Source: a plasmid
Sequence record: NZ_CP085281.1
Reading direction: 5' to 3' (one strand)
DNA length: 64,000 bases
The translations under genes were made by a program, and so were the position numbers. How positions within the stretch are numbered: the first letter of the stretch is position 1; each line of letters starts with the position of its first letter. This document shows positions 27,130-45,145 of the stretch, piece after piece. The notes below the pieces were generated by a model. It made no database searches. It saw only the letters and a program-made list of their open reading frames with translations, and was not told the DNA's origin.

Positions 27130-27329
27130 GCTTTGCGCTTCCCGCCCACCACCCGGCTCGGACTTCCCCGCAGGCGGTCGCTGACTGAGCACATCCGCCG
27201 ATACTGCGATAGGCTTATTCCACGTCGTGCACGCTCGGTTAAGCGGACAGCCCGAGAACGCGGCGGACGGTCGGCGCGGCCCGCCTCACTCGTGGTAAAC
27301 ACCATGTCGTCTAACTGATCGGTCCTCTA

Positions 27330-28157: not shown

Positions 28158-28277
28158 CGTGTGCAGGCAGCAGTTGTTCTCGACGCGCTATAACGGGGAA
28201 TCAGTTGGGGCGGTGCTGTATTGGTCGACGGCCCCTATCGTTGATGGGTATGTTTGCCGCGGAGGCGAAGGCGCGGT

Positions 28278-28985
28278 CTACGGGCGGTGTCGCTGGGTAC
28301 CGATATGAAGGATTGCGGTCCCGAGGACGTCTGCGGCTTTGAAAGCCACGCTGGCTCCCGCGAGAACCGGCGCGGCGGCTTGAAATCCTGGAACTAGGGC
28401 TGCCCCGTAGGCTGCGAGTGAGGCACCACCGGAGGCCACCTCGAGTAACCCGCTGACGGGATGGCCGTGAGACGCCGAATTCACTCCTGTCTGGAGGTTG
28501 GTAATCGCCCCCGTCGGGGTGGCCGCGCCACTTAGCTGGACCAATTGCCTGCCGACGGATACCACTTCGCTGATGGCAGCGCTGACAGACGGCACTGCGG
28601 CGGTGCTGACAGACCGTCGTGCGCCCGACATAGTGGCAAGCGCGGGTGAGGTAGACGGCGAGCTTACCGTGTTCGCGCTCAGGACAGTACGGATCGTGGT
28701 GAGTCCTCCGGGCGCCTTATGGGCAGCAGCAGTGAGTGAGTCAATGTGGACAGCAGTGGGTGTGGCATTTGATGATTTGCTGGCAGCGGCTGGGTTGCTG
28801 GTGTTGCTGCTTGACGACGGTTCGGAGTTGGGAGCACCGACTTTCACCGATGTGATGTGAGAGCTGCTTGATTGTTTACTAGGTGACGAGTTGCCGGGCG
28901 CGGCGTCCGCGTGCGCTACCCCCGACCCGCTGGCCAGCGTGGCGGCACCCACACCCAGCGTGACTGCGCCTGCTCCCAGCCACAC
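28278..28985 (-). CDS. secreted Ser/Ala-rich low-complexity protein
   Basis: Signal peptide 'MWLGAGAVTLGVGAATLASGSGVAHA'. Ser/Ala/Thr-rich body. The start abuts the IS3 left end. Confidence 0.45.
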   Translation of the reverse strand: MWLGAGAVTLGVGAATLASGSGVAHADAAPGNSSPSKQSSSSHITSVKVGAPNSEPSSSSNTSNPAAASKSSNATPTAVHIDSLTAAAHKAPGGLTTIRTVLSANTVSSPSTSPALATMSGARRSVSTAAVPSVSAAISEVVSVGRQLVQLSGAATPTGAITNLQTGVNSASHGHPVSGLLEVASGGASLAAYGAALVPGFQAAAPVLAGASVAFKAADVLGTAILHIGTQRHRP

Positions 28986-29021
28986 GTACCCTGGGCTTGA
29001 CCCCGTTTAGTGGACACAGGG

Positions 29022-29900
29022 TCAGGCGGCTTTTGCCGTCTGAGTGAGTCGGTCTTCGAAGTCGACCGGGGCCATCATATCGAGGGCTGAATGGCGTCGG
29101 CGTCGGTTATAGACACGTTCGATCCAATCGCCCACTGCGAGCTTGGCGGCTGCCTTCGTCGGCCATATGTAGCGGTCGTAGAACTCGACTTTTAATGTGG
29201 CCCAGAAAGACTCAGCTGCAGCGTTATCCCAACACACTCCGGTGCGGCCTGAGGAGCGGACCAGGTTGTGCTCGCGGGCGAACCGCGCCAGCTGTGCCGA
29301 GGTGTATTGGCAGCCGCGGTCAGCGTGCAAGATCACCTGATCGCCGAGCTCGCCGCGCATCGTCACGGCCATCTGCACGGCAGCCTGGACCAGATCGGTG
29401 TGCAGGTACTCGTCGATGGCCCAGCCGATCACCCGCCGTGAGCAGCCATCGCGCACCGCGCACAAATAGAGCCAGCCCTCACCCGTGCGCAGGTAGGTGA
29501 TGTCGCTCGTCCACACCCGGTTGAGCGCCCCGATGTCGAAATTGCGCTTCACCAGGTCGTTGGGTACCGGCGCATCCAGGTCGACGACCGTGGTGGCCGG
29601 CGCGAATCGACGCGGGCAGATCCCGGCCAGGCCCTGGCGACGCAGCGAGGCCGCCACCGTTTTGCGTGACACCCGCTCACCGGCGGCGCGCAGGTCGGCG
29701 CAGATGCGCGGGGCGCCGTACACGCCGTCAGAAGCCGTGTGGAACTCGGCGACCTTGGCGTCCAGCTCGCTGCGGCGCTGCTGGGCCGGGCTGGGCCCAC
29801 GGTTGCGGGATTTGCGCCATTGGTAATACCCCGAGCGGGATACCTCCAGCAGTTCGCACATCCGCTTGATCGGGTAGGTGGCCTTCTCCGCCTCGATCAC
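29022..29900 (-). CDS. IS3-family transposase OrfB (integrase core)
   Basis: rve-domain motifs 'WTSDITYLRTGEGWLYLCAVRD..SRRVIGW', 'HADRGCQYTS' and 'ESFWATLKVE'. Confidence 0.85.
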   Translation of the reverse strand: MIEAEKATYPIKRMCELLEVSRSGYYQWRKSRNRGPSPAQQRRSELDAKVAEFHTASDGVYGAPRICADLRAAGERVSRKTVAASLRRQGLAGICPRRFAPATTVVDLDAPVPNDLVKRNFDIGALNRVWTSDITYLRTGEGWLYLCAVRDGCSRRVIGWAIDEYLHTDLVQAAVQMAVTMRGELGDQVILHADRGCQYTSAQLARFAREHNLVRSSGRTGVCWDNAAAESFWATLKVEFYDRYIWPTKAAAKLAVGDWIERVYNRRRRHSALDMMAPVDFEDRLTQTAKAA

Positions 29901-29911
29901 CCGGTAGGCTT

Positions 29912-30211
29912 CTACCGGTTGTGTTCGGAGACGAAGAAGGCCGCGGCTTTTTTCAAAAACTCCCGGTCCAACCGTAATTCAGCGTTTTCGCGGCGCAGCC
30001 GTTCCAACTCTGCGCGTTCATCAGCATCAAGCACCGCGCTAGTATCGCCAGCCGTGACCGCTTCACGTTGGAGGCGCACCCAACGTCCCAACAGTTGTTC
30101 ACCAACACCGATCTCAGCGGCCACATGAGCCACCGGACGGCCAGTCTCAATCACCAGGCGAGCAGCCTGCTCCCGAAACTCCGGGGTGTACTTGCGACGC
30201 TTGCCCGACAT
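29912..30211 (-). CDS. IS3-family transposase OrfA (HTH)
   Basis: 'RRKYTPEFREQAARLV' and the leucine-zipper-like 'ELERLRRENAELRLDREFLKKAAAFF'. Slippery heptamer 'GAAAAAAG' near 29945-29955. Confidence 0.85.
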   Translation of the reverse strand: MSGKRRKYTPEFREQAARLVIETGRPVAHVAAEIGVGEQLLGRWVRLQREAVTAGDTSAVLDADERAELERLRRENAELRLDREFLKKAAAFFVSEHNR

Positions 30212-30450
30212 ACGGACATCCTTCCCGCGGGACCAACGGTCCCACCAGTCGGGTGTCCACCATCAGGGGTCAACCCCATACCCCTGGGTGCGGGCGCGAT
30301 GCTCGTTCATTGCCCGGTGTCGACCCGTCATCTCTCAATTCCCGTCTCACGTCTTCACGTCACCAATCTGACCTTGACCCTATCGAAGACCCTATCGAAT
30401 TAATACCCCAGGAAGGGACGCGGCGGCCAGCTGACACTGAACCATCCCGC

Positions 30451-30483
30451 GTTTGATGCACGTTTGATGCACGTTTGATGAAC
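30451..30483 (+). repeat. three tandem 11-bp direct repeats (gtttgatgcac x3, last copy degenerate)
   Basis: 'cgtttgatgcacgtttgatgcacgtttgatgaac' lies directly upstream of a small ORF and the oxygenase gene. Iteron- or operator-like. Confidence 0.6.
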
Positions 30484-30510
30484 ACTTCTTTTCGTAGGAA
30501 GGTGCATTTC

Positions 30511-30594
30511 ATGACGAGCAAGTACGATGTCGCTTGCCAGGATGAGATCCCCCCTCCCGAGACCGTGGAGGCACGATCTCGGGGCGCCGCTTAG
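30511..30594 (+). CDS. putative 27-aa small ORF (MTSKYDVACQDEIPPPETVEARSRGAA)
   Basis: ATG preceded by GGAAGG. Sits between the iteron and the oxygenase gene. Speculative. Confidence 0.2.
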   Translation: MTSKYDVACQDEIPPPETVEARSRGAA

Positions 30595-31132
30595 TCTTAC
30601 TTAGCACTGCGCCGATGCCGGTCGCCGCCGCCAACCCCGTCCACCACGGGCAGGTGGCGGTGCAACAGCAGCACCTCGACCAGCTCACGGGTTCCCCGGG
30701 CCATCACCGTGAGCACGTCGCGCCGCGGCCCAGAACGCCTCATGGGCGGCGGTGAACACACTCGCGCCGTGTGGCTCACGATGCCATTTCTCGCAGAGAA
30801 AACGGCTTGCAATCATGTTTTACTGTCAGTAAATGCGATGTAGCTGAAACCTCGGCATGCGCGACTGTCCTTGCCTGGTGTCAGGAGGAGGGTTGATGAA
30901 ATGAGTTGCTAGGCAGCAACAAATCTAAACAGCGCGACGAATCGTTGACTGGAATGCTGCTGCTGTTGCGCAGTTCACATTGTTGCTAAAGCCGTGCTGA
31001 AGTCACTCTGGCGGGCAGGAATTTGACCGCGGGAGTGCAGAGGACGCCATGGCCGCCGCTTGACCGTCCTGCCCACGCCGGGCCGCACCCACGTGGGCAG
31101 CCCGCTTCCTTCGATACCGACGGAGGTCACAC

Positions 31133-32474
31133 CATGACCGTGGACATCACCACCGACCCGCCCGCTCAATTGACCGCTCCACGCGCGACCACCGGCACGT
31201 TGGGAGAACTGGACGTCGACATGGTGGCGGCGCTCTGCCGGGCGAGTACTCGGCGGGGATTCAATCCGTTCATCGACATCGACTGGGACGCACCCGAGAA
31301 CCTGTTGGATGCGAACGATCCGCGCTGGCAGCTCGATCCCGCCGTCGCTCCGCTCGCGACGACGTCTTGGTATGCGCAGCAACCACTTCAGCGGCGCATC
31401 GAGATGAGTCGCTGGATCACCGCGAACATCCTCAAGGTCACCCTCCAGTTCGAAATGATGTTGATCCGTGGCGTGATTCACTACGCCGGGACCTTGCCGA
31501 ACGGCTCTGTGGTGTTTCGGTATCTGCTGCACGAGCTGACCGATGAATGCCATCACATCCAAATGTTCCAGGAATTTGTCAACCGCTCGGGCGACGACGT
31601 TCCCGGGATGCGGCGAGGCTCACGGATCTTCGGGCCAATCCTGGGCTTTATTGGCGGCTACGCCAACATCTTTCTGTTCATCGGAGTTCTGTGCGGGGAG
31701 CAGCCTCTGCACTTCCAGCAGACGCTGCAACATCGTGGCTCGACTGCGGTGCCCCCGCTGCTGAACAAGATCACCTCCATTCACCTGGCGGAGGAAGCCC
31801 GGCACATCTCGTTCGCCAACCAGTATCTGGCGCAGCGCGTTGCCGCGGCGGGACGGTGCCGGCGGATGTTGTACGCCTTGGCATTCCCTGTCTACCTTCG
31901 GTGGTTGATCGGCGAAATGATCGCACCACCACGCGCGTTCGCCCGGCAGTTCGGCATTCCCCGGCGCGTGTTCAAGGCCGCCTATTGGCGTAGCGCCCGA
32001 TCGCGGCAGATGTTGGCTGAATCGGCCGCTGACGTGCGGCGCGTCGCCGAAGACCTTGGGCTACGCACGGTCTGGTCACGGTGGCTGTGGTCGCTGCTGG
32101 GTATCGACGGGCGGTTACCGCGGTACCGCGGTGAACCCGATCGGAGTCAACCGTTCATCCGTATGGCAGGGCTGCCAGCAGTGATGTGGCGGCGTGTAGC
32201 GGCCGCGGCGATGATGGCGGGCGTTGCTCTTGCGGCGACACCGGTCGGGTTGCGGATCATCGCGGTGGCCGCGGCCGCAGCAGCAGTGTGGGCGTCCTAC
32301 CATCTGCTGCGGGCCCGTCGCGGTGGTGTGGTGGGCAACCAGCCTTTTGAGTGGCCCAGGCTGGTTGTCTGGGTGGTGGTCTGCGTGGCCATGGTTCCCG
32401 CCGGTGGGTTGATCGGACTGGCGTTGGTGGTGTTCATGATCCTTGCACTCGCCGAATTCATGCCGACGTTATGA
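31133..32474 (+). CDS. AurF-like diiron oxygenase with C-terminal transmembrane segments
   Basis: Paired ExxH motifs 'ELTDECHHIQMF' and 'HLAEEARHISFA'. GGAGG RBS. Hydrophobic C-terminal ~100 aa. The track ORF starts at 31023. Confidence 0.7.
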
Positions 32475-32599
32475 CCGAATTGCCATCCTTACTATGCACG
32501 CGCCGGTCGGCTGACATCGGTTAGCCTAGCTGGCGGTCGCCGGTGCGGGAAAGACGATGGCGGGTGACATCGCCGGAGGAGGCTGCGATGGGCGCGGCG

Positions 32600-33050
32600 C
32601 CGGTGTAGGTGGCGAACGCGTCGGCTGAGCGGAAGCGGGTGAACGGTGCCGACTCGGGCCACGATTTTGGCGGCGTTGAGGACCCCGATTCCGGTGAGCT
32701 CGGTCAGGGTGGTTCCGGATGCTTCGACGGCAGCTGCGATGTCGCCGGCGGCTTTGGCGATGCGACGGTCGAGTGCGCGGATCTCGGCGACGAGGTCAGC
32801 GGCCAGGCTGCGCAGCGTTTGAGGGCGACTTCGCGGGACCGGATCTGGCGCAGGATGTCGGCGGCGCGGTCAGCAGTCAGGCCACGCGCAGCGCCTGACG
32901 GTGTGAGGTGGGTCAGCAGGACGTGCAACCGGTTGAATGGTTTGAGTGCGCGTCTTGACCAGGTCCCCGCGGTGTTCCACCACGGCGCGCAGGGCGGTGA
33001 TGGCCGTGTCGACCGAAGCAGCGTGAAGCCGAGTGGCAGTCCCCCTACCT
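32600..33050 (-). pseudogene. IS110-family transposase internal fragment (frameshifted)
   Basis: Two frames carry 'VEHRGDLVKTRTQTI' and 'NRLHVLLTHLTPSGAARGLTADRAADILRQIR', matching the linker after the DEDD domain of IS110 transposases. Confidence 0.45.
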
Positions 33051-33461
33051 TCAGCGGTTCCGCCCCGCGTGTTTTCGTGGCATCGGAACAACGACGTTGG
33101 TTCCGTAGGTTTCGTGCGTGAGTTCGGTGATCACCGCGGAAAGCGTTCTGATCTTGCTTCTCAGCTGAGCGTTTTCGGCAGCCAATTCCTGGTGGTGATG
33201 ACGGGCCTGTGCAAGTTGTCGTTGCAGTGCCTCGGCATTCGGAGCGACGGGTCCGCACCCGACCGATGCCTTGAACTCGTTCAGCAGGTCGCTGTGATGT
33301 TCGTAGAGTCTCTGCCGTGATATTCCGGATTCGTCAGCCAAGGCCACAATAGTGTGCGCTCCGTTGCTGCGCTCGGCTTGGTTTTCTCGGAGGCGGATCA
33401 TGGCGGCCTGGACCAGCAGTCGTTCCTCATCGTTACGGGTGGCTTTGCGCACGAGAGTCAT
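33051..33461 (-). CDS. small HTH plus coiled-coil protein (TnpC-like accessory protein of recombinase module 1)
   Basis: 'IVALADESGISRQRLYEHH' HTH, then coiled coil 'ELAAENAQLRSKIRTL'. ATGA overlap with upstream recombinase C at 33458-33461. Homologous to 52580..53200. Confidence 0.6.
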   Translation of the reverse strand: MTLVRKATRNDEERLLVQAAMIRLRENQAERSNGAHTIVALADESGISRQRLYEHHSDLLNEFKASVGCGPVAPNAEALQRQLAQARHHHQELAAENAQLRSKIRTLSAVITELTHETYGTNVVVPMPRKHAGRNR

Positions 33462-35596
33462 TCGTTCTCTCCGCCCTGTTGTGGCGTCGGCGGTCGGCTG
33501 GATTCGTGTTCTGCGAGTGCCTTTCGGTGCTCGGTCAGGCGAGTCTGAATTCGTTGCCGCAGCGGTTCGGGGAGTGCGGGGGTAGCCAGGTCTTGTTGGA
33601 GTGCGTTGACATGCTGGCGAAGGTTGGCCGCGTCGCGGTCGGTACGGGCAGCATTGACGCAGCCAAGACGGCACCGACCCCAGGAGGGTTCAGCGGAGCT
33701 GTCAGTAGGGTCAAGACACGCCGCAGTGGCGCGCCGGAACACGCACGTCACGACCGCGCCGTGGTGGATCTGCAAGTCGGGGTTTGATAGTGCGGTGTTG
33801 ATCTGACTCTTGGTGGTGATTGTCAAACCCGCAAATTTCCTTGCTCTGGTGACGCGGGCCCGGTACTCATCGGCAGCCGGACCGGAGACGTGCTCGCCGC
33901 GCTCGAGCCTTTGGGAATCGTCGTGGATGGTCTCAGCGCGGTGGAGAAACTGTTCGAACGTGATCTCGTCGAGAAATCCCGAGTCTGCTCCGCCGGCGTA
34001 ACCTTGAATCAGTTGTGTGTGCAGGTGGCCGTATTGCGTTGCGCCGGCGATCGTTCCGCCAGGCCGCCGCACGATGTGCCAGGCCAGTGTGCGCCGCAGG
34101 CGCGGCACTTGGATCTTGCCCTGCGGATCGGCAGCGATCAGCGGATGGCTGATTGCTGGACAGAGCTCGCGGTTGAACCATTCAATGAATCGTGTGATGT
34201 CGGTGTTAATGGACCCTGGCGTCCTGGTACGGGTGGAGCCGTAGAGGAATCGCTCCTGGGAGCACAAATTGAAGGCTGGGAAGAGGAGGTCGCTGACTGT
34301 GATCTGCCCAAGGACGCTGACGGCATGAGCGGTTTCGTCGGTCACGACCCACGGGACCGTGGCAGGGGATCGGTCCCGGCGCCGGTCATCGGCCTTCAAC
34401 TGGTGGCCGGACATGAATGTCAACGCCAGCTTCGAGTCTCGGGTTATGCAGCCGCGCCGCAGGTTGAGCGCCTCGCCGGTGCGAACACCCGAGAGGTAGG
34501 CGATCACGATGAAACAGGCTGCTGTGACGTGGCGAAGCAGTTCAACGAGTTCCATCGCATCGACGGGGTCTTCACGCCAGGGGCGCGTGCCGATGGCGCT
34601 GAATGTGTTGACGCGCAACATGTCAACTTCGATCGGCAATCCATACTCGGTCAACATGACCGAAGTTTCTTTCATACGTTTCAGTTCGCCGTGGTTCAGC
34701 CATCCGCCCACGGCCAAACCCATCAGATCGACACTGGTAGTTTCGCCCGTCCGGACACCCGGAAGTGAGGCGTCGTTGCGGTCAAGCGCGGCAAGCACGC
34801 AATCGAGTTGCTGCTTGGCGGTCTCGAATACCGACACCGTACGAGCAGGAGCACGGCGGATGTCGGGTGCGATCTGATGGGCTAAGTGACGCATCGCGAG
34901 AAGGTTGCGCGCTGCGGGAAGCAGATCGGCAGCGACCGAATTGGTAACCACCAACGCCGCCGAGAGCAGCGGTTCCATGACGTCGGGATGAATACGAGGG
35001 GTCGTGTTCGGCTTGCCCCAGGATGACTCATAGTTGGCAAGCCCTCGCGCACTCGCACCACCCCACAACGCGCCCGCGGGAAGCCGGCAATGCGCAGGCA
35101 GGACCTCCCGGTACAAGTGCAGACGCTTGATCGCCTGTAGCGCCGAGCGTTTGGATCCGGCGCTGACACCTCTCATTTCGGTGACATGGCGCAGATAGCC
35201 GTTGAGGTGTTCGGTGCTGACCTGCCCGAAGGATGTCACCCCCATCTCCACCAGCCACATCGTGAACCTTCGCAACGGCACCAGCTCACCCCAGATTGTC
35301 TTGATATGCGGATAGAGTGACCGGGCGCCGTCAAGCCGGGGTGCATCGTCAACCACGTTGAGCAAGGCGAACAGGTAGAGCTTGCAGGCGTGGCGAAAAG
35401 GCGTCGGGAACCCATCCCAGTGCACGGCTTGTCCGGCACTGTGCCGGTCCTCGATCGCCGCGGACAGGTCCCACACCGGGTCGCCAAATCGGCACCGGCT
35501 CCCATCGACGTGAAGGGTGCGGTTCAACAAGACCTCGGTGTCGGGGGCGACGTCGACACCGGCCACCAGGTCGAGTGCTACAACTGTTTGCGTCAT
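33458..35596 (-). CDS. large tyrosine recombinase (module 1, gene C, ~712 aa)
   Basis: Catalytic motifs 'YLSGVRTGEALNL', 'RLRRTLAWHI' and 'QYGHLHTQLIQGY' (R..H-R..Y). C-terminal Cys cluster. ATG at 35596 overlaps the stop of B (ATGA). Confidence 0.7.
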   Translation of the reverse strand: MTQTVVALDLVAGVDVAPDTEVLLNRTLHVDGSRCRFGDPVWDLSAAIEDRHSAGQAVHWDGFPTPFRHACKLYLFALLNVVDDAPRLDGARSLYPHIKTIWGELVPLRRFTMWLVEMGVTSFGQVSTEHLNGYLRHVTEMRGVSAGSKRSALQAIKRLHLYREVLPAHCRLPAGALWGGASARGLANYESSWGKPNTTPRIHPDVMEPLLSAALVVTNSVAADLLPAARNLLAMRHLAHQIAPDIRRAPARTVSVFETAKQQLDCVLAALDRNDASLPGVRTGETTSVDLMGLAVGGWLNHGELKRMKETSVMLTEYGLPIEVDMLRVNTFSAIGTRPWREDPVDAMELVELLRHVTAACFIVIAYLSGVRTGEALNLRRGCITRDSKLALTFMSGHQLKADDRRRDRSPATVPWVVTDETAHAVSVLGQITVSDLLFPAFNLCSQERFLYGSTRTRTPGSINTDITRFIEWFNRELCPAISHPLIAADPQGKIQVPRLRRTLAWHIVRRPGGTIAGATQYGHLHTQLIQGYAGGADSGFLDEITFEQFLHRAETIHDDSQRLERGEHVSGPAADEYRARVTRARKFAGLTITTKSQINTALSNPDLQIHHGAVVTCVFRRATAACLDPTDSSAEPSWGRCRLGCVNAARTDRDAANLRQHVNALQQDLATPALPEPLRQRIQTRLTEHRKALAEHESSRPPTPQQGGENE

Positions 35597-37377
35597 GACG
35601 CTTCCAGGTTTCCCGACAGCAAGAGATTGACTGTGCGGTGATCGCTGTCGGTGATCTCGGCTCGCGCGGCGGTCAGCTGGGCCTGCTCGTACTCGGCGAA
35701 AATGTCGTCCAGTTGCGCGAGGGGACCCGCGTGATCGGTGATCCACTGCCCGATGGGCATCTCCTTGCGCAAGTCACGGAGCCGGTCAGCAACGACCAAT
35801 TGAACGGGCAAGTGGCGCGGGAAGGCGCGGGCGTTGCTGCAGTCAAGGCATGCCATAAACGACTGGCGACACCGTTTACCGTCGATCGGCGAGTGCTCAA
35901 AATCGGCGCAATTGCCCAGCACAGCGTCCTGGGCGGATCCGTTGTCGTGGTTGTCCGGATGCACCGTCATCGAGCGCCGGGCCAGCGCTTGTGCTACCTG
36001 CTCATCGAGCGCCTCGGCCACGATCTGGAACCCCTCGTTCCTCACCGACTCCATTCGGCCCAGATAACGAGCCAACGTGGCCGGCGTGTGGGCCGTGGGC
36101 TTTCGGACCTGCTCCAGGTAGGTTTTGCGCAGCCGATCCATACTGATCCCGAGGAGCAAGTCGTCATGCCCGGGATCGCCGGTGAGCCACGGTGCCATCC
36201 AACGCCGTCGAGCGCTGACGCCGGACGCAGTTCTGCTGATGCCGTATCCGAAGGGTTTCTGTTCGACATTGTCTGGCTGGGCACTGTAGTAGACGAAGGC
36301 GTGCTGGCACCCGGTCAGCGTGCGGGCCGGTTCGGTCAGTTCCAGCAGCAGCATGAAGACCCCGTAAGCGGTAGTCAGCGACGTGTTGGCCACGGCGGCG
36401 CGCCGATTGTCGCCACCGTGCGGCATTGGTTCAGGGCGCAGCGCGGTCACTGGCACCGTCATGGCCGACCGGTTCCCACGGCGGGGCTTGTCGGCGTTGA
36501 CGAACACGATGCCGGGCTCGTCTGGGCTGCTGGCTTGTCGGTGTGGGGCGGGCAGCGATTCGAGCGTTGACAGGTTCAGGCCGGTCAGTCCGGATAGGAG
36601 AACAGCGAACGCCCATGCTTCTCCCGGGCTCAAGTGCAGCAACGATTGAAGTCGGCATCCGCCAGCTGCGGTCACCGCGCGCCGCGTCACGAAAGCCCTT
36701 GCACCTGAGGCAGTGCGGGGGAAGTCGCCCTCACGGGCGCAGTGATCAAGCACTTCGGCCAGACTGCGCCCGGGGTGGGCACGGGGTTGATGATCGAACT
36801 GTCCCGCACGATAGTCAGCGACCATCCCCCAATGAGTCCGCAATCGTGCGCGCGCCCGCCGAACTATTCCCCGTGCCACCACGTTGATTCGGCGCATCTC
36901 GTCGGCGGAGTACGGTTGTCGCGCCTTCGCGTTCTTCTGGTGACGCACGCGCGCGAACGCCTGACGTGCCTCATCGGAGACGACAGGACTGCAGCGCAGC
37001 AGCGTCTTGAGGCTCGGTGCGGGGCCAGGGCCGCTGGGTACCCGACACGATAGGGCGAGCAGCCGGGCATCCGAGGCTGACAAATCTGCCAGTCCCCCTA
37101 TTCCTGGACGGTTTTCGGCGAGCCAGCAGCAGGCATGCCGGGCAGCCTGCCACAGCGCCCCAGCCCCCCGCAATCGCTTGGATACGCCCAGCACACCGGT
37201 GGCATCCTCGAACGCGATCGCGAAATCGTGGCGGATTCCGCTGTTGCCCGGCAGGGAACCGAAGTCGAAATCCTTCGACTGAGCACCATCCTCGCTGACG
37301 AACGTCACGATGAGCCCGCGTCGCCGCAATACCGGTCGCCACGCCGGATCCGGCTGCGCCGCGCGGCGACCCGTCAT
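35593..37377 (-). CDS. tyrosine-recombinase-like protein (module 1, gene B; catalytic motifs degenerate)
   Basis: Sits between two bona fide recombinases and is ATGA-coupled at both ends. Has 'LLSGLTGLNLSTL' (box-I-like, lacking R/E), '...RLRKTYLEQ' and a C-terminal Cys cluster 'CADFEH...CRQSFMACLDC'. Confidence 0.55.
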   Translation of the reverse strand: MTGRRAAQPDPAWRPVLRRRGLIVTFVSEDGAQSKDFDFGSLPGNSGIRHDFAIAFEDATGVLGVSKRLRGAGALWQAARHACCWLAENRPGIGGLADLSASDARLLALSCRVPSGPGPAPSLKTLLRCSPVVSDEARQAFARVRHQKNAKARQPYSADEMRRINVVARGIVRRARARLRTHWGMVADYRAGQFDHQPRAHPGRSLAEVLDHCAREGDFPRTASGARAFVTRRAVTAAGGCRLQSLLHLSPGEAWAFAVLLSGLTGLNLSTLESLPAPHRQASSPDEPGIVFVNADKPRRGNRSAMTVPVTALRPEPMPHGGDNRRAAVANTSLTTAYGVFMLLLELTEPARTLTGCQHAFVYYSAQPDNVEQKPFGYGISRTASGVSARRRWMAPWLTGDPGHDDLLLGISMDRLRKTYLEQVRKPTAHTPATLARYLGRMESVRNEGFQIVAEALDEQVAQALARRSMTVHPDNHDNGSAQDAVLGNCADFEHSPIDGKRCRQSFMACLDCSNARAFPRHLPVQLVVADRLRDLRKEMPIGQWITDHAGPLAQLDDIFAEYEQAQLTAARAEITDSDHRTVNLLLSGNLEAS

Positions 37378-38882
37378 ATTCCGACCGTCAACACACGAGA
37401 CTCACCGACGCCAGCTGCTTCGACGAGACGCTCAAGGGATTGCCGATCGTCAGCATCCATCAGCGCGATCAGCTCCTCAACCTGCAACGCCTGAAACGGC
37501 TCAAGATAAACGCTGCGTGTCACCTCAGCACTACGATGTCCAAGAAGTGTTGCCATGAGAAACCAGACATCACCAAGCTGATTGCGGAAGTCCCGCTGCT
37601 CCTGCTTCGTCAACATATCGGTACGGCGCCACGCCACGAAAGTGGCAATGCAATACCACCGCAGCGCAAAGGAATGCCTCAGCATGTGGGGACGGCACCA
37701 CAACGGCGTACCTCCCACTTGCACAATCGCTTTCGCGACCCTGGCGTTCGCGCGGTCGAATGTCTTGTACCAGGAGTGTTTAGGGCGAGGTATCCCGTCG
37801 TGATTCAGCCACATCCACATCGGCTCCAGGCCATCGGGTCCCCTGCGGAACAACTTCATTCGTGTCGACGGCCCGAGTGCGTCCAGGAGGACCGTACGAC
37901 GCGATCCCGTCGCATCAACAACCTCCAGTTGCCCATCCCGCCGAACGCGCTGAACAATCCAATGATCCGCAATGTGCTCATACCGACCAGCACCTTGCGC
38001 GCGGGCGATCGCAGCAGTGCGACTGCCTTCCTGCAGATAGAAGTGAACTTGTTGGGCGACGCGGCGCCGCATCCAGAACGGTCGCCCGCTACCACCCTTC
38101 GCGCAACAAGGCGCCACGCGCGAACGCACAAGCCCCTCAGACCCCGGCTTGGGCACCTCGATGGTTAACATGCTGGCCCACTCGCCGATTCGCAAACCCG
38201 TCCCGAACAACCCCTCAACGAACGCGACATCGCGGTCCTCAGTCACTCCGAGCCAATCCGGACGCGGCACGCCCTCCACCGTGAAACCACGCAACCCCAG
38301 GTTCCGCCACAACCGAAATGCCTGCGGGGTAAGCCACTTCACGTCGGCCCTGCGTATCCCGGAGGGAGTGCTCTCCAACACGACTTTGCCCCCAACCACC
38401 CGCGATGTGGCAATCACACGGGCTCGGACCGGGTTGTCGATTCCGTGCTGCTCGGCGGCCCACAAGTAAAAGCTGCGGATCGCGGCACGATCGACACAGA
38501 AACTATTGGCACTCACATGCTGAGGGTTTTCCTCAGCCGACAACCGCCACTCCTTGAACGCAGCCAGTTCCGATCGCGACGCCTGACCCCATCGAACGCC
38601 CATCGCGTGCAGAAAATCCAGCCACACCTTCAACGACAAGGCATAACGACGCAAAGTCCCCGTTGCTCGTCCCCTCACCAGCGGATCCCGCCAGTAGGCG
38701 TTCACCAACGCATCCGCACGCCCCCACGGATCAACAAAGAACGGAGTGCCATCACGCGCACCGTTTCGCCTCGCCCAGGTCTCGACATCACCCAAACCCG
38801 GAACCACTTCGTCCACCGATACGAACGGCTGGCGGAAATCGTAGAAATGAAGAGTCCAACCATCAGCCGAAGCACCAGCCAT
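37374..38882 (-). CDS. tyrosine recombinase (module 1, gene A, TnpA-like, 502 aa)
   Basis: 'TLRRYALSLKVWLDFL' core-binding region. 'GTGLRIGEW', 'HMLRHSFAL', 'LLGHRS' and 'TRSVYLEP' are R-H-R-Y catalytic motifs. Confidence 0.75.
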   Translation of the reverse strand: MAGASADGWTLHFYDFRQPFVSVDEVVPGLGDVETWARRNGARDGTPFFVDPWGRADALVNAYWRDPLVRGRATGTLRRYALSLKVWLDFLHAMGVRWGQASRSELAAFKEWRLSAEENPQHVSANSFCVDRAAIRSFYLWAAEQHGIDNPVRARVIATSRVVGGKVVLESTPSGIRRADVKWLTPQAFRLWRNLGLRGFTVEGVPRPDWLGVTEDRDVAFVEGLFGTGLRIGEWASMLTIEVPKPGSEGLVRSRVAPCCAKGGSGRPFWMRRRVAQQVHFYLQEGSRTAAIARAQGAGRYEHIADHWIVQRVRRDGQLEVVDATGSRRTVLLDALGPSTRMKLFRRGPDGLEPMWMWLNHDGIPRPKHSWYKTFDRANARVAKAIVQVGGTPLWCRPHMLRHSFALRWYCIATFVAWRRTDMLTKQEQRDFRNQLGDVWFLMATLLGHRSAEVTRSVYLEPFQALQVEELIALMDADDRQSLERLVEAAGVGESRVLTVGI

Positions 38883-38919
38883 CCCCGGCCCCCTCGCCTC
38901 ACGAACATTGCCCCCATCA

Positions 38920-40590
38920 TCACCGACATACTTCCCCGAACGTCTTCGACACGCCTGTCGGGCAGAGAACAGGGGACTGGATGTTTCCAGGGCAGGTCAC
39001 TCGATCGAACCCGGCGATGGTGGTGGCGAAGGCCTGAGTGAGTGCCTGTTGGTCGGCGTAGAGGGTGTAGGTAGCGGTCTGCGGTCCGCCGGGGTCGGAG
39101 TTGGGCCCGCACTTCACTGAGGCCTGCGCTGAGTCGTCGCGTGCGGTGCAGCTGGTATCTGAATACCCCTTGGGCACAGCGTTTTTGACTCGCTGAATGT
39201 CTGCGTCGGATGGGTGGACTGGGGTGGGTGCGGCCGCCTGGCCGCTGCCAGAGTCCGAACCGGCGACGTTATATATGGCGATCGCGGTGAGGATGACGCC
39301 GATGAGGATGACGGCCGATATCGCGATGGCCTTCGTCGAGGGTGTCCGCCGGCTCCGTGTCGTGGGAATGATTTGCGGCCACGCGGTGTGCTGCGGGGGC
39401 ATGTGAGGTGCAGGAGCGGGACGTGCGGGTCTGGCGGCCGGGGGCCAGGACGACGGGTAGGTGGGCGCCTCGCTGTGGCGCGTCGGGGACGGTGCCGGCG
39501 TCCTGGTGGCGGCGGCGACGGAGTGATCGTGTCCTGGCGGGCCCTGGGGAGGCGTCGGTAGACGCGCTGGCCCGCTTGCGATGTCCGCGCCGACGTCGGT
39601 GGGTGCGGGGGGACGTGCTGTCGTCGCTGTTGGGATGGGGCCGGTGATCTCGCTGGCGTCGGGGGTGCCCGTGGTTGGTGGCTCGCTGGCCACGGTCGGG
39701 CTGCTCGGCGCGGGGGTGGCGGGCAGGGTTTCCGCGCGTGTGGTCGTGTCGACGTCGCCGGTGTTGGGCTCCGCTGCTGTCGCCGTGCGAGCCGGGGTTA
39801 TCACCAACTCGGGGGCCCCGGTTAGGTCTGCCGCGATGGGCGCCGGACTGGACACGAGTGCGGGTGCGGGTGTCGGCGCGGCGGGATCCGGGTCTGATTC
39901 GCCTTCTTCGTCGGCTGCGATGTGTTGCTCGCCAGGGCGGTCATCGCCGACCGGCGGCACACCCGCGGGCAGGGCCACGCCGTCCGGCTCGCCGGCCGGG
40001 TCCTGTGCGACGAGCGGATCGTGGGGGGGTGCGGATGGTGCCGCGACCGCTGTGCTGGCGGTGGTCTGCCCGGAGTTCGCTGGTAGGTCGTCGCGTCCGG
40101 GCTCGGGGATGCTGTCGTCAGGGAGGTCTTCGATAGTGGCGAGTGCAGGACTGCGCCCCTGGTCTGCGACGGCTTCTTCCGCGGTGGCGTCCTGGGGAAG
40201 GTCGTCGATATCGACGGCGGCGACGGGATGGAGCTTGGCGTAGTCGACGGTCTGGTCGTCCCAGTAGCTGAGGTCGAGGATGTAGGCCAGATCGACCGGG
40301 AAGCGCTGCATGCCGTGATGGGGAGCCTCACCGGGGGTGCTCGCGCGCATCACGATGTCGCTCACCCACAGGAACGGTCCCGAGTCGTCGAAGTCCAGGC
40401 GCTCGGTTGGGAACGTGGACGTATCGGTGCTCGCCTCGATGTGGTGCTTGAGCTGTCGGTCGAGTCGTGCCGAAAAGTACGTCTGCCCGTCCGGGCCCTG
40501 CCGAATGTCGACAGTCTCCCCGCCGAGGGGAAGCTGTCGGCGCAGGTCATCAGGGCCTACCCGGAGGTGGCTGATCGAGAACCGTGACAC
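38920..40590 (-). CDS. membrane protein: conserved N-domain (paralog of 13875..14834), long Pro-rich linker, TM helix, extracellular Cys-containing C-terminal domain
   Basis: GTG start at 40590 ('VSRFSIS...'), which aligns with 'MSRFVIQS' of the paralog. TM 'AIAISAVILIGVILTAIAIYNV'. The track ORF starts at 40731. Its stop lies 38 bp upstream of the recombinase A start. Confidence 0.6.
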   Translation of the reverse strand: MSRFSISHLRVGPDDLRRQLPLGGETVDIRQGPDGQTYFSARLDRQLKHHIEASTDTSTFPTERLDFDDSGPFLWVSDIVMRASTPGEAPHHGMQRFPVDLAYILDLSYWDDQTVDYAKLHPVAAVDIDDLPQDATAEEAVADQGRSPALATIEDLPDDSIPEPGRDDLPANSGQTTASTAVAAPSAPPHDPLVAQDPAGEPDGVALPAGVPPVGDDRPGEQHIAADEEGESDPDPAAPTPAPALVSSPAPIAADLTGAPELVITPARTATAAEPNTGDVDTTTRAETLPATPAPSSPTVASEPPTTGTPDASEITGPIPTATTARPPAPTDVGADIASGPARLPTPPQGPPGHDHSVAAATRTPAPSPTRHSEAPTYPSSWPPAARPARPAPAPHMPPQHTAWPQIIPTTRSRRTPSTKAIAISAVILIGVILTAIAIYNVAGSDSGSGQAAAPTPVHPSDADIQRVKNAVPKGYSDTSCTARDDSAQASVKCGPNSDPGGPQTATYTLYADQQALTQAFATTIAGFDRVTCPGNIQSPVLCPTGVSKTFGEVCR

Positions 40591-41166
40591 AGCGCAACCT
40601 ACCGCCGTGGCGACCGAGTCGGCGCGACCGTCGAGCGATCCGAGGCGATGTCGCCGTAACCGTGGAGAACGAGGCGGCGCTGATCTTCCAGCAGCACGTC
40701 GACCCACCCGATGCCCAGGCGTTCGGTGCAAATCTCGACACCGCGCACCGTGCTGCCGTAGTCGGGGAGGTAATCGCCTTCTTGCAGGTCATGCACGACG
40801 ATGACCTGAGTCGTCTCCGTATGCGGTGCACTCGCCGTGGGACGCTCTCCGAGAACGGTCATGGTGTCGGTCTCCTCTTCGAGCGCCGGCCGCAGTCAGG
40901 CCGATGGTTGGCGGCGTTGCATCCAGGCTATCGGCGCGTTTGGCTCACACAGCGTCTCGACCACCTTCGATTTCGACAGCGGTGGCGGCCAGGTTCACGG
41001 CGTTCTGAAACAGAATCCCCGGGGCCGCGATCCAGGTAGCCAGGAAATCCCTCGCGTGCCAACATCTGCAGCCGCCGCCCCGTGACATGGTCGACCATCG
41101 AATGGTAGTGAATGTTAATTCGCGGCATGTCTGTTAGCAGATGGGTGTACATGTTATTTATGGTGC

Positions 41167-42471
41167 ATGGAGAACACGCCAGCGTTCGGAAAGGCCGTCC
41201 GCGAGCAGCGCGGCGACCGCACGCAAACGGAGATCGCCAACCTTGGGGGTCCATACCGCCAGCTTCAAGGACGCATCGAAAAGGGCGACCACATCGAGGT
41301 CCCCGATAAAGCCTTGCGTCAGTTCGACGTCGCTTTCGGATGGGCTCCGGGCACCGCCGCGACCATCCTGCGCGGTTCACAGAAAGGCCTTGTCGCAGCA
41401 CCGCCGCCGCGCATCGCAGTTGGAGCGCTGGGCTACGACGCCGAGACCGGCCAAGCGGTTGAGTTCCCAGCCCGTCTGCGAACAACGCTTGCACCCGGTG
41501 ACCTCGTAGACGCAATCTGCTCCTGGCCGGGGATCGTCGTCGCCGATACTCAGGTTTTCGACAGTCCCGACCGCTCTGCTCTAAGAGGATTGCCGGGGCG
41601 TCTCCCCGAGTGGGTTCTGAAAAGCGAAATAGGCCCTACAGGACAGCGTTTAGCGTCCCAGTGGGGAGCTGGAGCCGACGATCGCGTCGCGCTTACGGTC
41701 GGTGTCCAGTGCGCCGGCATCGACAGCGTTGCCATCGACCCGATCCCGGGAATGACCAACAGCGAGCAAGCCTCGCGGTTGATCGCTGCCGTCCGAGACA
41801 TTCGCCCGGACAGTACGAGCGTGGCCGGACGGGAGTTGGAAATCAGTCATACGCTCCTGCAACTGGCATGCCAGCGCCCTCATCCGGAGCGTCATAGGCG
41901 TGCCCTGCTGACCGTGGAACGCCCATTCTTGCGAACCGATGACGTTCTCTACGAGCCACTTTCCCCCTCGTGGAAGGAATTCCTCGACCAGGCGGAAACA
42001 ACGCTGCCGATGGAATACGCGGCGCCGTCTGTTGCTGCCCTGCTCTCCGGTCTAACAACAGCCCGGGATAACTCGATCGACATCATCCTCGACAAGTCGA
42101 CAACGCCGGCGAGAATAGCCAAACGCGAAGTCCCGACAGTCATTTTCCCGCAGGATCTTTCGGCCGGAACGCTCCTGCTTCATGACGCCGAGGTCAGTCC
42201 CGAGCTTCCCGCTGTCGTCACATGGGCCACTGACCATCCCGTGTTGGTGATCGCGCAAAAGCCAGCCCCCACATTCTCGAAACGGCTTTCTCAACCGAAC
42301 GTCGTTGAATTCCTACTCCCGTACAGCTACGGGCTTGCCGACACACGCCTGGCGCCTGGCTGGGCCCTGCTTTCCCGCGCTACCGACATCAAGAACCCTC
42401 TGTTGACGTTCAGCGACGGCGACGGCCGCCGCTCCGCCAACGTGGTCCTGGCCTACACAGAGGCCGCATAG
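41167..42471 (+). CDS. XRE-family HTH protein with large C-terminal domain of unknown function (434 aa)
   Basis: N-terminal 'FGKAVREQRGDRTQTEIANLGG' HTH_XRE. Divergent from the 38920 gene. Confidence 0.6.
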   Translation: MENTPAFGKAVREQRGDRTQTEIANLGGPYRQLQGRIEKGDHIEVPDKALRQFDVAFGWAPGTAATILRGSQKGLVAAPPPRIAVGALGYDAETGQAVEFPARLRTTLAPGDLVDAICSWPGIVVADTQVFDSPDRSALRGLPGRLPEWVLKSEIGPTGQRLASQWGAGADDRVALTVGVQCAGIDSVAIDPIPGMTNSEQASRLIAAVRDIRPDSTSVAGRELEISHTLLQLACQRPHPERHRRALLTVERPFLRTDDVLYEPLSPSWKEFLDQAETTLPMEYAAPSVAALLSGLTTARDNSIDIILDKSTTPARIAKREVPTVIFPQDLSAGTLLLHDAEVSPELPAVVTWATDHPVLVIAQKPAPTFSKRLSQPNVVEFLLPYSYGLADTRLAPGWALLSRATDIKNPLLTFSDGDGRRSANVVLAYTEAA

Positions 42472-42531
42472 CGGCCCCTCACTCGCCTGAACGGGATGCC
42501 AGCGCAGCCGTAGCCGCGATGGCTTCGGTTC

Positions 42532-42720
42532 TCACCGTCGTTGACGCCGCACCACCTGGGTGTCCCAGATGCCTGTTCCGGGCACCCGCAGCGTTCGCCG
42601 TACGGTGCCGTCGGCGGAGCGGCTGAATCGTACGGGTCCAGCGCCGACGCTGACGGAGATCCCCCGCTGGGTGAGCGTGAAGCGGAAGGGGCCCAGTGTC
42701 GTGGTTTTGCGGAACTGCAT
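42532..42720 (-). CDS. DUF4236-like small protein (62 aa)
   Basis: 'GPFRFTLTQRGISVSVGAGPVRFS...GTVRRTLRVPGTG' is a DUF4236-type repeat pattern. Confidence 0.45.
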   Translation of the reverse strand: MQFRKTTTLGPFRFTLTQRGISVSVGAGPVRFSRSADGTVRRTLRVPGTGIWDTQVVRRQRR

Positions 42721-42824
42721 GGCGGTGCTCCTCTGGTGTCGGTGTCATAGATGAAGTACCGGCCTGGTGCCGTCTTTCCGTCACCTACGCCGCAAACTGG
42801 TCCACCGGACTGCGCTCGCATTCG

Positions 42825-43610
42825 ATGTGTGAGCATGTGGTCTGGCAGTTGCTGAGCCGGACACCATCTCGGGAAATTCGAGGCATCGCAGCGCGCTTTC
42901 TGGGCTGTCTCGGGTGGGAGACTGACCGGATGAGCCACCTAGTGCACGCCGCCGGTTTGCCGGTCCTACCGCCGGCTCGGGACTTCATCCTCTCCCCTGG
43001 CTTCGCAGGTGCGACAGCGCTGCTCGCCGCGCTCATCATCATGGGCGCCGTGGTGTACGGATCACGCCGCACCGGTAAGCGGCACCGCGCCGAACAGGAT
43101 CAAAACGAGCGGCATCACGCAGAGCGGCGCGCCGATGAACAGCACGCGGCCGCGGTCGCGCGCTGCTGGGATCGATGGTGGCAGGTATTGCAGACCGCTG
43201 CGCTCGAACCGGCAGCCAGCGAGGGGGCCACCTTAGGACTCGGTCCAGAGGTGACGCTGCAGGTGTTGAAAGGTCTTCTGCGAGACGCCGAGCAGCTCGG
43301 CGACGACACCCTCACCCAAGCGATCACCGTCTACCAGGAGCAATTCCTTCTCGTGCTGGCCCAGCAGAGCGGTCCGCTATCGCGGCTTGCCACTGAATCG
43401 ACAGCATCTCCCGCCGGCGCACGCTCCACCGCCCCGCTCCCGAGGGAAGCGGCTGCGCTCCCTATTGATGGCGCTGCACCACAGCGCAATTCAAGCTCCC
43501 CGCCCACGCGGCCAACGGCTATACCTTCTGCTTCCGGTGAGCCGGACGGCGCCGAGACCGCTGCCCCGGCCGCAGTGGACCAGACGACGGGAAGACGGCG
43601 CCGGCGATGA
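42825..43610 (+). CDS. hypothetical membrane protein
   Basis: Hydrophobic segment 'FAGATALLAALIIMGAVVYG'. Stop overlaps the next gene start (ATGA at 43607-43610). Start is uncertain; the track ORF begins at 42696. Confidence 0.4.
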   Translation: MCEHVVWQLLSRTPSREIRGIAARFLGCLGWETDRMSHLVHAAGLPVLPPARDFILSPGFAGATALLAALIIMGAVVYGSRRTGKRHRAEQDQNERHHAERRADEQHAAAVARCWDRWWQVLQTAALEPAASEGATLGLGPEVTLQVLKGLLRDAEQLGDDTLTQAITVYQEQFLLVLAQQSGPLSRLATESTASPAGARSTAPLPREAAALPIDGAAPQRNSSSPPTRPTAIPSASGEPDGAETAAPAAVDQTTGRRRRR

Positions 43611-45145
43611 CGACCACCCGGCAGCACATCGCCGACCTCGATCCCGCAACGTGGGCCAGGGTGACCCTGCGCGCGGCACAGGAGTCGGTCGAGGCGTCGA
43701 CGCGGGCGGGCTTGCGGCCACGGCCGGAGACGATCGCACTCGCCGCGATGACCGAGGCCGAACTCGTTGAACACCGCCAGCAAAACGGCCCGGCCAAGGC
43801 ACGCCTGTCCCCGGTGATGCAACTCGTCGAAGCCGATCAACGAAGCCGTGAGGCGCACAGTCGTGAGCGCGAAGCCCATCAGGATCGGCTGGACGCGCTA
43901 GCGGCCGCGGCGATGGCCCGAGCCGACGCCGACGAGTCCGCCCGCATCGCCACCCAGGCGCGGGAGCGTGTGCGCGAGGTGCAGGCCGAGGCTGACGAAA
44001 AGGACCGGCGACGAGCGCAGGAGCATGCGGCCGACCAGCAGGCGTTGCAGGCCATTCGTGCCGAGATCGAACAGATCCGTGCGGCCACTGCCGCCGAGGT
44101 CGAGCAGGTCCGCGCCGACGCCGCCGCCGAGGTCGCCGCGGCACATGAACGGGCCCGTGCGGCCGAGGAACGCGCAGAGCAGCGCGCCGCCGAACGCACC
44201 GCTGAGCGCGCCGCAGCCGAAGCGCTGGTGCAGGAGCTTCGCGATCAGCTCGAACGGCTCCGCGCCGACAGCGCCGCTGAGGTCACTGCCGCCCGGGAAC
44301 GTGCTGCAGCCGCCGACGCGCGGGCCGAGCAACGCTTGAACGAACGCGTGCAGGAGCGTGCCGCCGCTGAGGCAGCCGCAGGGCGGCTGCGCGCCGAAGT
44401 CGACCAGATCCGCGCCGATGCGGCCGCTGAGGTGGCAGCAGCCCGCGATGCGGCGAAGGGTGAAGTGGCCGCAGTGCGCGAACATGCCGCGGCTGAAATC
44501 CTGGAGGCGCAGCTCGGCGCCCAAGTCGAGGTCGACGCCGCCCAGGCTCAAATCACCGACGCCCAGCTCGCAGCGCAAGCTGAGATCGCAGAGGCTCGTC
44601 GCGCCGCGCAAGCCGACATCGATCGCGCCAACGCATACGCCGAAGACGTGGTGCGCCAAGCGCAGGAAGAAGTCGCACGGGTGACGTCCGCGGTCCGCGC
44701 GTCGGAGCCGCTGATGATTCCCATCGCCTCGGTGACGGTCCGCCCGCAGATCGGGTCGCTGGAGTCGGTGTTGGATGCCCTCTACCGGATCGATTATCTG
44801 TTGGAGAACTCGATGGCCACGTCGAGCCCGCCGCTCGACGTCGAGTACGTGCGTGGCCTCACCCGCACGGTTCAGGAGCGGGCCCAGGTTCTGTCGACGG
44901 AGTTGGCCGAGCTGCCATCGCGGTTCATCGAGCACTCCGACGTGGAGGCGTCCGCGTCCTACGCCAACGCCGCCGGCGCCGCCTATAGCGGTCTGCTGCA
45001 GCGCATCGAGGACGCCGCCTGGCAGCTCATGGGCCGCAACGAACATTCCGACGAGGCCGTGGTGGCCGCCGTCTCGACGATGGTCCGTGACCCGTGGGTG
45101 CACGGCCTTCGGGTCACGACGCAGGCACCCCCGGACGACGTTTAG
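43607..45145 (+). CDS. Ala/Glu/Arg-rich coiled-coil repeat protein (512 aa)
   Basis: Internal degenerate repeats of about 33 aa: 'QIRADAAAEVAAA.ERA.AAE.RAEQR..ER..ERAAAEA'. C-terminal globular ~130 aa. Confidence 0.6.
   Translation: MTTTRQHIADLDPATWARVTLRAAQESVEASTRAGLRPRPETIALAAMTEAELVEHRQQNGPAKARLSPVMQLVEADQRSREAHSREREAHQDRLDALAAAAMARADADESARIATQARERVREVQAEADEKDRRRAQEHAADQQALQAIRAEIEQIRAATAAEVEQVRADAAAEVAAAHERARAAEERAEQRAAERTAERAAAEALVQELRDQLERLRADSAAEVTAARERAAAADARAEQRLNERVQERAAAEAAAGRLRAEVDQIRADAAAEVAAARDAAKGEVAAVREHAAAEILEAQLGAQVEVDAAQAQITDAQLAAQAEIAEARRAAQADIDRANAYAEDVVRQAQEEVARVTSAVRASEPLMIPIASVTVRPQIGSLESVLDALYRIDYLLENSMATSSPPLDVEYVRGLTRTVQERAQVLSTELAELPSRFIEHSDVEASASYANAAGAAYSGLLQRIEDAAWQLMGRNEHSDEAVVAAVSTMVRDPWVHGLRVTTQAPPDDV

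Follow-up and report, generated by a model that had tools for sequence, protein, structure and literature searches.

Four coupled genes at one end of a plasmid-borne element of Actinomycetota: a probable recombination core of the strand-biased circularizing integrative element type

The DNA analyzed here is a stretch of 64,000 nucleotides (nt) from a plasmid (sequence record NZ_CP085281.1), referred to below as the window. Four consecutive genes on its minus strand, named A, B, C, and D, encode three large proteins and one small protein and occupy the left end of a 15.3-kb integrative element (Table 1). At the A-B, B-C, and C-D junctions the stop codon of one gene overlaps the start codon of the next in an ATGA motif (ATATGACG, TCATGACG, and GAATGACT), confirming the full coupling described in an initial annotation made from the sequence alone. 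The G+C content of the four-gene region is about 61–63%, compared with 65–70% around it. The protein sizes in that annotation stood for A, B, and C, while the 137 amino acids (aa) given for D had included the stop codon. The tyrosine-recombinase mobility module proposed there was also recovered, but its four genes turned out to be only the left-end core of the island.

Table 1. Positions of the element, its genes and neighboring features in the window.
Feature	Position	Strand	Description
Whole integrative element	23696-38970	minus	15,275 bp, inverted repeat to inverted repeat; core at left (higher coordinates), cargo is the rest
Left terminus	38947-38970	minus	inverted repeat GTTCTCTGCCC (38970-38960), then palindrome CGACAGGCGTGTCG (38960-38947)
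Right terminus	23696-23723	minus	palindrome TCGACAACTGTCGA (23723-23710), then inverted repeat GGGTGAGTGAAC (23707-23696)
Target gene, 5' part	38971-40731	minus	Pro-rich membrane protein; C-terminal domain ends ...VTCPGNIQSP at the junction
Target gene, 3' part	23509-23695	minus	(T P) GAWRRN...LDQLYTWWGTHS*
Gene A	37374-38882	minus	502 aa
Gene B	35593-37377	minus	594 aa
Gene C	33458-35596	minus	712 aa counted from ATG
Gene D	33051-33461	minus	136 aa; 137 codons including stop
Cargo region	23724-33050	both	~9.3 kb, mostly insertion sequence (IS) debris plus a few genes
IS21-family istA	23818-25512		just inside the right end
IS21-family istB	25494-26285		with istA; element ~23790-26410
IS21 repeat arrays	~23795-23895 and, inverted, ~26320-26409		~22-nt repeats GGGCA(C/G)TTTC.TGTCCGCC
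STAS-domain gene	27315-27782	plus	Pfam
IS3-family orfB	29022-29978	minus	Pfam
AurF-like N-oxygenase gene	31023-32474	plus	Pfam
IS110-type transposase fragment	32567-33041	minus	92% identical to pMYCCH.02
434-aa protein	41167-42471		
512-aa protein	43607-45145		Ala/Glu-rich, coiled coil
552-aa protein	45247-46905		weak HerA-like C-terminal match, winged-helix repeats
Second module	52580-57458	minus	551-aa and 873-aa proteins (Pfam Phage_integrase), 206-aa DUF6262 protein

Related loci were sought with conserved peptides of B, taking one genome per species, and 40 loci were retrieved (sequences retrieved in this work carry L numbers). All 40 belonged to Actinomycetota, with hosts in the genera Mycobacterium, Mycolicibacterium, Mycobacteroides, Rhodococcus, Prescottella, Nocardia, Amycolatopsis, Frankia, Nocardioides, Nocardiopsis, Streptomyces, and Flexivirga. 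The order A-B-C was present in every complete locus and held down to about 30% identity of B (tblastn); a D-like open reading frame (ORF) of 122–150 aa followed 3' of C also at loci where tblastn gave no match to D. As the A-B-C-(D) order was kept across the complete loci, the arrangement is not a matter of chance. The initial annotation had regarded independent occurrence of the genes as evidence against a module; in the complete loci among the 40, the block was kept together. Proteins at least 90% identical were found on about 180–200 contigs, whose names include M. avium subsp. hominissuis (plasmid), M. canariasense, and M. adipatum.

The element interrupts a target gene, the ORF of which stops short at 38971 and continues from 23691. 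The tail of this gene was located at 23691–23512 on the minus strand by tblastn with the tails of intact homologues (E 5e-21). Such intact homologues, found on other mycobacterial plasmids (including L043 and L044), read ...CPGN(I/L)QSP GPWRR...LDQLY(A/T)WW, and one of them forms the C-terminal domain in a Ser/Thr protein kinase. The insertion point lies after ...AACATCCAG TCNCCN, coding for ...NIQSP, in this gene family of mycobacterial plasmids, which includes some Ser/Thr kinases. In an alignment of 14 copies, conservation 5' of A began exactly at GTTC(T/A)CTGCCCGACAGGCGTGTCGA, from window position 38970 downward. The DNA before the target tail reads ...TGTCGACAACTGTCGAAAGGGTGAGTGAAC; reversed, it repeats the left end imperfectly (GTTCACTCACCC...CGACAGTTGTCGA vs. 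GTTCTCTGCCCGACAGGCGTGTCGA). The broken target, its tail at 23691, and the inverted copy of the left end therefore delimit the element to 23696–38970. Over its last 34 nt the right end shares 91% identity with that of the element on an M. chimaera plasmid, and both adjoin the target tail; the right-end sequence, inverted, also matches the left end of L018. Subterminal palindromes of the form CGACA-N2-4-TGTCG are present at both ends, about 10–13 nt from the tip. The inverted repeats and the CPGNIQSP target provide the ends and the insertion site for which the initial annotation had proposed a comparative search. Terminal repeats flanking the four genes alone, searched for in 29000–43000, gave chance-level matches, the real right end being 9 kb further.

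The motif CPGNIQSP was found in frame at the left junction of eleven close copies (the window, L001, L005–L010, L012, L014, and L015). In L004 and L050 the target motif lies at contig ends, L050 reading CP(P)NIQSP. The same motif was occupied in inverted orientation in L011 (Mycobacterium sp. 050272, 5220–5420), where the left repeat abuts the GPWRR half; an influence on orientation has been reported for TnpC of Tn554 (PMC3414803). Most copies are flanked by genes that differ from one another but are homologous, with the break falling at the same codon, after ...V(V/T)CPGNIQSP. While the elements are 81–90% identical among copies at the DNA level, the flanks share 45–55% identity at the protein level. 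The divergent flanks and the inverted copy point to repeated insertion, and the flank divergence suggests that the many CPGNIQSP insertions were independent. The sequences next to the repeats are CCCT at attL and ACCC at attR in the window, and CCCT and GCCC in NZ_LT703506. In these two right ends, the only ones recovered, the spacer reads 4 nt with symmetric repeats or 6 nt with offset repeats. Since CCCT and ACCC are not identical, they are unlike a target duplication of the DDE type and fit a tyrosine-recombinase spacer carried from the previous site.

Protein A matched Pfam Phage_int_SAM_1 at 1e-8 and Phage_integrase weakly. In an alignment of 23 homologues the residues R231, K262, H399, R402, H449, and Y459 were invariant, and by these residues A is a complete tyrosine recombinase. 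For C, Pfam matches were sub-threshold only. The profile of the C family matched the SAM-like core-binding domain of PDB 3nrw (E 0.002), its sole PDB profile match, and a Foldseek search with the AlphaFold model of C (pLDDT 79) gave Cre, XerH, and IntI4 as best matches, none of them below E 0.001. Invariant residues of C were R372, K401, R501, H524, and Y533, and its C-terminal cysteines C618, C627, C642, and C646 were near-invariant. The position of the histidine in the HxxR motif was occupied by Pro, Arg, or Ser, never by His. The complete signatures initially ascribed to both A and C thus hold for A, with its six invariant positions, and not fully for C.

Protein B had no sequence match in Pfam, NCBIfam, or PDB, and a PDB profile search with the B family gave nothing relevant. 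The family comprises 1,046 clusters (50% identity) at E ≤0.001 and 259 at E ≤1e-30. In all 138 aligned members the LTGLN motif carried Asn at the position of the first catalytic arginine (Arg-I, position 268), and K297 and R299 were equally constant (138/138 each). R417 (in LRKT) was present in 133 and Y438 in 137 of the 138, and the C-terminal cysteines C490, C503, C510, and C513 each in at least 135. On these residues, B is a recombinase-fold protein that is only partly degenerate: it lacks Arg-I and the histidine of HxxR but retains the rest of the site. Because it keeps the Lys, Arg-II, and the Tyr, B may still contribute to catalysis. The initial annotation had described B as recombinase-like with Arg-I replaced, which the family alignment bore out; its further description of B as probably catalytically degenerate applies to the loss of Arg-I and not to the retained Lys, Arg, and Tyr. 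An alignment of B to a non-recombinase family, named there as contrary evidence, was not obtained. The Cys cluster that B and C had been reported to share with the second module's 873-aa protein was found again, with four near-invariant Cys in both B and C and a similar C-terminal C-x10-C-x5-C-x2-C cluster in the 873-aa protein. Homology between B and C was not detectable (BLASTP; B family against C family, E 0.16 in hhalign), nor did BLASTP give significant pairwise similarity among B, C, and the 873-aa protein. Some matches to the B family (P0285, P0305, and P0313) have lengths of 1,054–1,121 aa and align in four stretches, perhaps because a Tfp-like protein was fused or tandemly duplicated.

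A gene set of this kind has been described in SEs, integrative elements of the strand-biased circularizing type, the core of which is intA-tfp-intB-srap, Tfp denoting a "tyrosine recombinase fold protein" (PMC10214605, 2023). The SE of Salmonella plasmid pSC138 (NC_006856.1, L047; coordinates from Additional file 3 of PMC10214605) served as reference, with the tightly coupled genes for IntA (509 aa), Tfp (616 aa, 2529–4379 of L047), IntB (663 aa), and Srap (146 aa). IntA, IntB, Srap, and the GinA–GinD proteins discussed below were each represented by one reference sequence, and Tfp by a family alignment (P0337–P0431). In profile comparisons with hhalign, the source of all family E values below, the B family (138 sequences) aligned with the Tfp family (87 sequences) over 436 collinear columns, with a probability of 87% and E 3.7e-6. 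In the Tfp family N276, K304, R306, R387, Y419, C488, C517, C523, and C526 were each present in 87/87 sequences. Invariant in both families were TGxN, K-x-R, LR(K)T, the Tyr, and C-x-D...C-x-x-F-[LM]-x-C-x-x-C. Tfp has been described in the literature as lacking the RHRY motif. All 87 gammaproteobacterial Tfp sequences still have an invariant Lys, two Arg, a Tyr aligned to the Tyr of B, and four Cys. From this conservation, a catalytic role of Tfp may deserve re-examination. A bolder idea, which we regard as doubtful, is that B and Tfp, instead of being inert scaffolds, form a conserved class of Arg-I-less tyrosine recombinases, perhaps cleaving one strand only, which would explain the strand-biased copy-out of SEs.

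The N-terminal half of D gave weak matches to helix-turn-helix domains of the resolvase and TetR types, and its C-terminal half matched coiled coils, in agreement with the helix-turn-helix and coiled-coil type assigned to it at the outset. The D family aligned with Srap of pSC138 over nearly its full length (111 columns, probability 94%, E 1.7e-7). It also aligned with a DUF6262 protein encoded 3' of two tyrosine-recombinase genes on a mycobacterial plasmid (E 1.4e-7). In Pfam the D family gave coiled-coil noise only and no DUF6262 match, whereas the corresponding protein D' of the second module (52580–53200) has a DUF6262 match. These profile alignments suggest that D is the counterpart of both Srap and TnpC. 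The control pairs, that is, all other cross-comparisons of profiles, gave E values of at least 0.016.

What the analysis shows is the anatomy of the genes, their folds and conserved residues, the element's ends and target site, and that the block is conserved; these features match SEs at several levels. Gene order, strand, tight coupling, and size classes agree (502/594/712/136 aa here vs. 509/616/663/146 aa). In both, the second protein has a recombinase fold with Asn at Arg-I and a C-terminal Cys cluster, and the fourth protein here is homologous to Srap. The core lies at one end and is followed by cargo, the terminal inverted repeats are short and imperfect, and insertion is specific for a target site. 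The overall size of 15.3 kb is close to the SE median of 15.7 kb. We therefore consider it probable that an SE-type integrative element has its recombination core in these four genes, arranged as intA-tfp-intB-srap. In this assignment C, by its sequence a large tyrosine recombinase, would be the counterpart of IntB, and A that of IntA. What the initial annotation had taken for an extra middle gene is no oddity, as B has its counterpart in Tfp of the published SE core, in the same order and with similar sizes and coupling.

Several observations weigh against this assignment. The link to SEs is one of profile-profile scores of moderate strength. With BLASTP, none of A–D matched IntA, Tfp, IntB, or Srap of pSC138 significantly (best E 0.029). 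The significance of the B-Tfp alignment depends on enlarged alignments and appears only in the family-against-family comparison, at 87% rather than 99%; smaller runs, in which B was represented by 28 sequences or Tfp by one sequence against the enlarged alignment of B, gave E 0.047, 0.025 (from the 28 sequences), and 0.019. The A family was collinear with IntA at E 0.054, and IntB, the best match of the C family, was marginal at E 1.6e-3; neither is significant alone. SE termini are imperfect inverted repeats of 13–19 bp with a 6-bp spacer, and movement is copy-out-like (PMC10214605), while the junctions found here do not fit a clean 6-bp spacer and, with symmetric repeats, look like 4 nt. In the SE type, the spacer of attB goes to attL and a 6-bp footprint of the previous site to attR, and recombination of attL with attR uses one specific strand and gives a nicked circular copy, with no empty donor site left behind. 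C also lacks the HxxR histidine of RHRY, whereas IntB has the RHRY motif. SEs have been reported from Gammaproteobacteria only (PMC10214605), in contrast to the Actinomycetota hosts found here, and a search of the literature available to us gave no report of SE-type elements outside Gammaproteobacteria. The authors of that study discussed the narrow host range as a consequence of the four-protein mechanism, and pointed out that divergent clades might escape PSI-BLAST (PMC10214605). A circular junction or an empty site was not present among the sequences retrieved. L049, a metagenome contig of about 6.1 kb with the whole core, had neither a terminal overlap nor recognizable termini; L045 and L050, metagenome contigs of about 6 kb screened for a circular or cargo-less form, end inside D. 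Finally, the cargo in the window is largely IS debris, and this copy may therefore be decaying.

By the sequence-network criterion that separates SEs from genomic islands with three integrases (GInts), an element without BLASTP-level similarity to SEs falls outside them. Because this similarity was missing and the host phylum is a new one, we class the element as a third, SE-proximal group in the SE/GInt/Tn554 set of multi-recombinase elements; on profile similarity it appears to be a deep actinobacterial branch of the SE kind.

An origin from the Tn554 family was weighed against the SE assignment. A transposon with tnpA-tnpB-tnpC could have independently gained a recombinase-fold gene, the likeness to SEs being convergent. 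Actinobacterial Tn554-like elements, which consist of two recombinases and a TnpC-like protein, are common in Actinobacteria (Van Houdt et al., 2012, PMC3414803), and the window itself contains one: the second module is of the Tn554-like three-gene type and clearly distinct from the four-gene element. The A family aligned with the short recombinases of such elements at E 2e-5, and the D family with DUF6262 as given above. The Cys cluster at the C-terminus of a large protein and the site-specific insertion are further likenesses; the comparison was made with actinobacterial Tn554-like proteins, not with staphylococcal Tn554. The initial annotation, which had likened the four genes to Tn554, therefore pointed in the right direction, although the gene order is that of the SE core. 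A Tfp-like protein is missing from Tn554-like elements, which have three genes, while four genes were always found here. Convergence is hard to reconcile with a B-Tfp alignment that is collinear over 436 columns and includes Asn for Arg-I, K-x-R, the Tyr, and the Cys motif. For D, the match to Srap is as good as that to DUF6262, and a core at one end followed by cargo is the layout of SEs and GInts. We consider a Tn554 origin unlikely.

The locus might also be a fixed remnant that is no longer mobile, or a domesticated recombination system. The window cargo is dominated by IS21, IS3, and IS110 elements, neither a circular form nor an empty site was seen, and movement of SEs and GInts is rare even for intact elements (PMC5385486, PMC10214605). 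However, none of the four ORFs is disrupted and neither terminus is missing, about 180–200 contigs encode proteins with at least 90% identity, and the closely related copies in divergent flanks, one of them inverted, point to repeated insertion. A remnant is accordingly quite improbable.

An assignment to the GInts has even less in its favor. The GInt core ginABCD encodes three proteins resembling integrases, of which GinC lacks the first arginine, and a small helix protein (Bardaji et al., 2017, PMC5385486). Excision and integration depend on each of the four gin genes, and the cargo begins at the ginD stop codon (PMC5385486). The element described here shares the operon of four coupled genes for three integrase-like proteins, one of them without the first arginine, and a small helix protein, as well as the tripartite organization with cargo from the end of the fourth gene. 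But the degenerate protein is third in GInts and second here, and the GInt proteins are smaller (GinA 401, GinB 437, GinC 543, and GinD 132 aa in E. coli Sakai). The B family matched GinC at E 0.71 and the D family GinD at E 0.033, in comparisons with single GInt sequences that have limited sensitivity. Thus SEs, and not GInts, are matched in protein sizes and in where the degenerate protein stands, and a GInt is a very unlikely identity for the element.

RIT elements (recombinase in trio) also have three adjacent co-oriented genes of the tyrosine-recombinase fold, but their recombinases have 315–410 aa, all with the catalytic Tyr, their terminal repeats are 34 bp long, and a small fourth gene is absent (Table 1 of PMC10214605); the protein sizes of 502, 594, and 712 aa and the fourth gene rule them out here. 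An integrase module of a phage or of an integrative and conjugative element was rejected, as no Xis or conjugation genes were recognized inside the element. The "atypical replicative element" of Rhodococcus RHA1 (PMC12169178), considered in outline, was not linked to this element.

For an SE-type element, a mode of action may be proposed by analogy with the SE-6283 element and with the genetics of GInts. In SE-6283, knockouts of intA, intB, and srap abolish circle formation, and a tfp knockout was unobtainable (PMC10214605). Coupled translation of the operon would provide the four proteins in fixed proportions. A and C would act as the catalytic recombinases, cutting and rejoining the DNA at both ends. 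B, without Arg-I, would bind core DNA and complete the synaptic complex, while D would bind as a coiled-coil dimer, probably at the subterminal palindromes, and set the assembly or the orientation. Recombination of attL with attR would then yield a circular copy, possibly with a strand bias, which would integrate into the conserved target motif. The mobility of the element and the role of each protein are thus put forward by analogy.

The cargo differed between copies. Conservation among copies ended at the D stop codon, and beyond it each copy had different DNA, often an insertion sequence. At first impression the repeats near the right end of the window copy were taken for arm-type sites of the island, but these arrays belong to the IS21 ends. 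The block is 81.5% identical in the M. intracellulare subsp. chimaera plasmid NZ_LT703506, the similarity being confined to window positions 33076–38995 (megablast). The element on that plasmid (NZ_LT703506.1, L046, record positions 47410–74727) has the same architecture, ends, and target, with its right end 27 kb from the left. Its cargo is unrelated to that of the window and includes genes for TetR, an acyl-CoA dehydrogenase, a fatty-acid-CoA ligase, aldehyde and alcohol dehydrogenases, a two-component system, a P450, an FAD-dependent oxidoreductase, and a 2Fe-2S ferredoxin, together with a group II intron and IS1380; it looks catabolic.

Relatives at about 50% identity in L016/L024 (Rhodococcus sp. 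T7, ~5386) and L018 (Nocardia araoensis, ~1611) keep the termini TTCACTC.CCC...CGACA..TGTCG. They are inserted after another coding motif, PP(H/Y)W (...ITAPPHWE and ...VRVPPYWT). Judging from these sites, target specificity may vary between subfamilies. The SE of pSC138 (L047, 790–1000) lies 3' of umuD and interrupts an apparent umuC start (MFALADINSFYASCEKVF...); its left end carries TTCCACTCTC together with a GACA...TGTC pair and thereby recalls the termini of the actinobacterial elements.

Outside the element, a copy of IS1245 (IS256 family) at ~21406–22826, about 700 nt beyond the target tail, is 100% identical to copies on M. avium plasmids. Together with the source names in the 90%-identity cluster of B given above, it makes M. 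avium, or a close relative, the probable host of the window. Beyond the target gene, 40731–47000 contains large ORFs without recognized function (Table 1).

If true, a sister clade in Actinomycetota would change the picture of SEs as elements confined to Gammaproteobacteria. The elements reside on mycobacterial plasmids, including those of the M. avium complex, and at least one carries a cargo with P450, ferredoxin, and alcohol and aldehyde dehydrogenase genes. B and D are annotated as "hypothetical proteins" in current records; the inverted repeats and the CPGNIQSP target now allow islands of this type to be delimited in mycobacteria. Two distant families also provide independent evidence on the key residues of Tfp (Asn at Arg-I, K-x-R, Arg-II, the Tyr, and four Cys), and the residues shared by B and Tfp make the role of Tfp directly testable.

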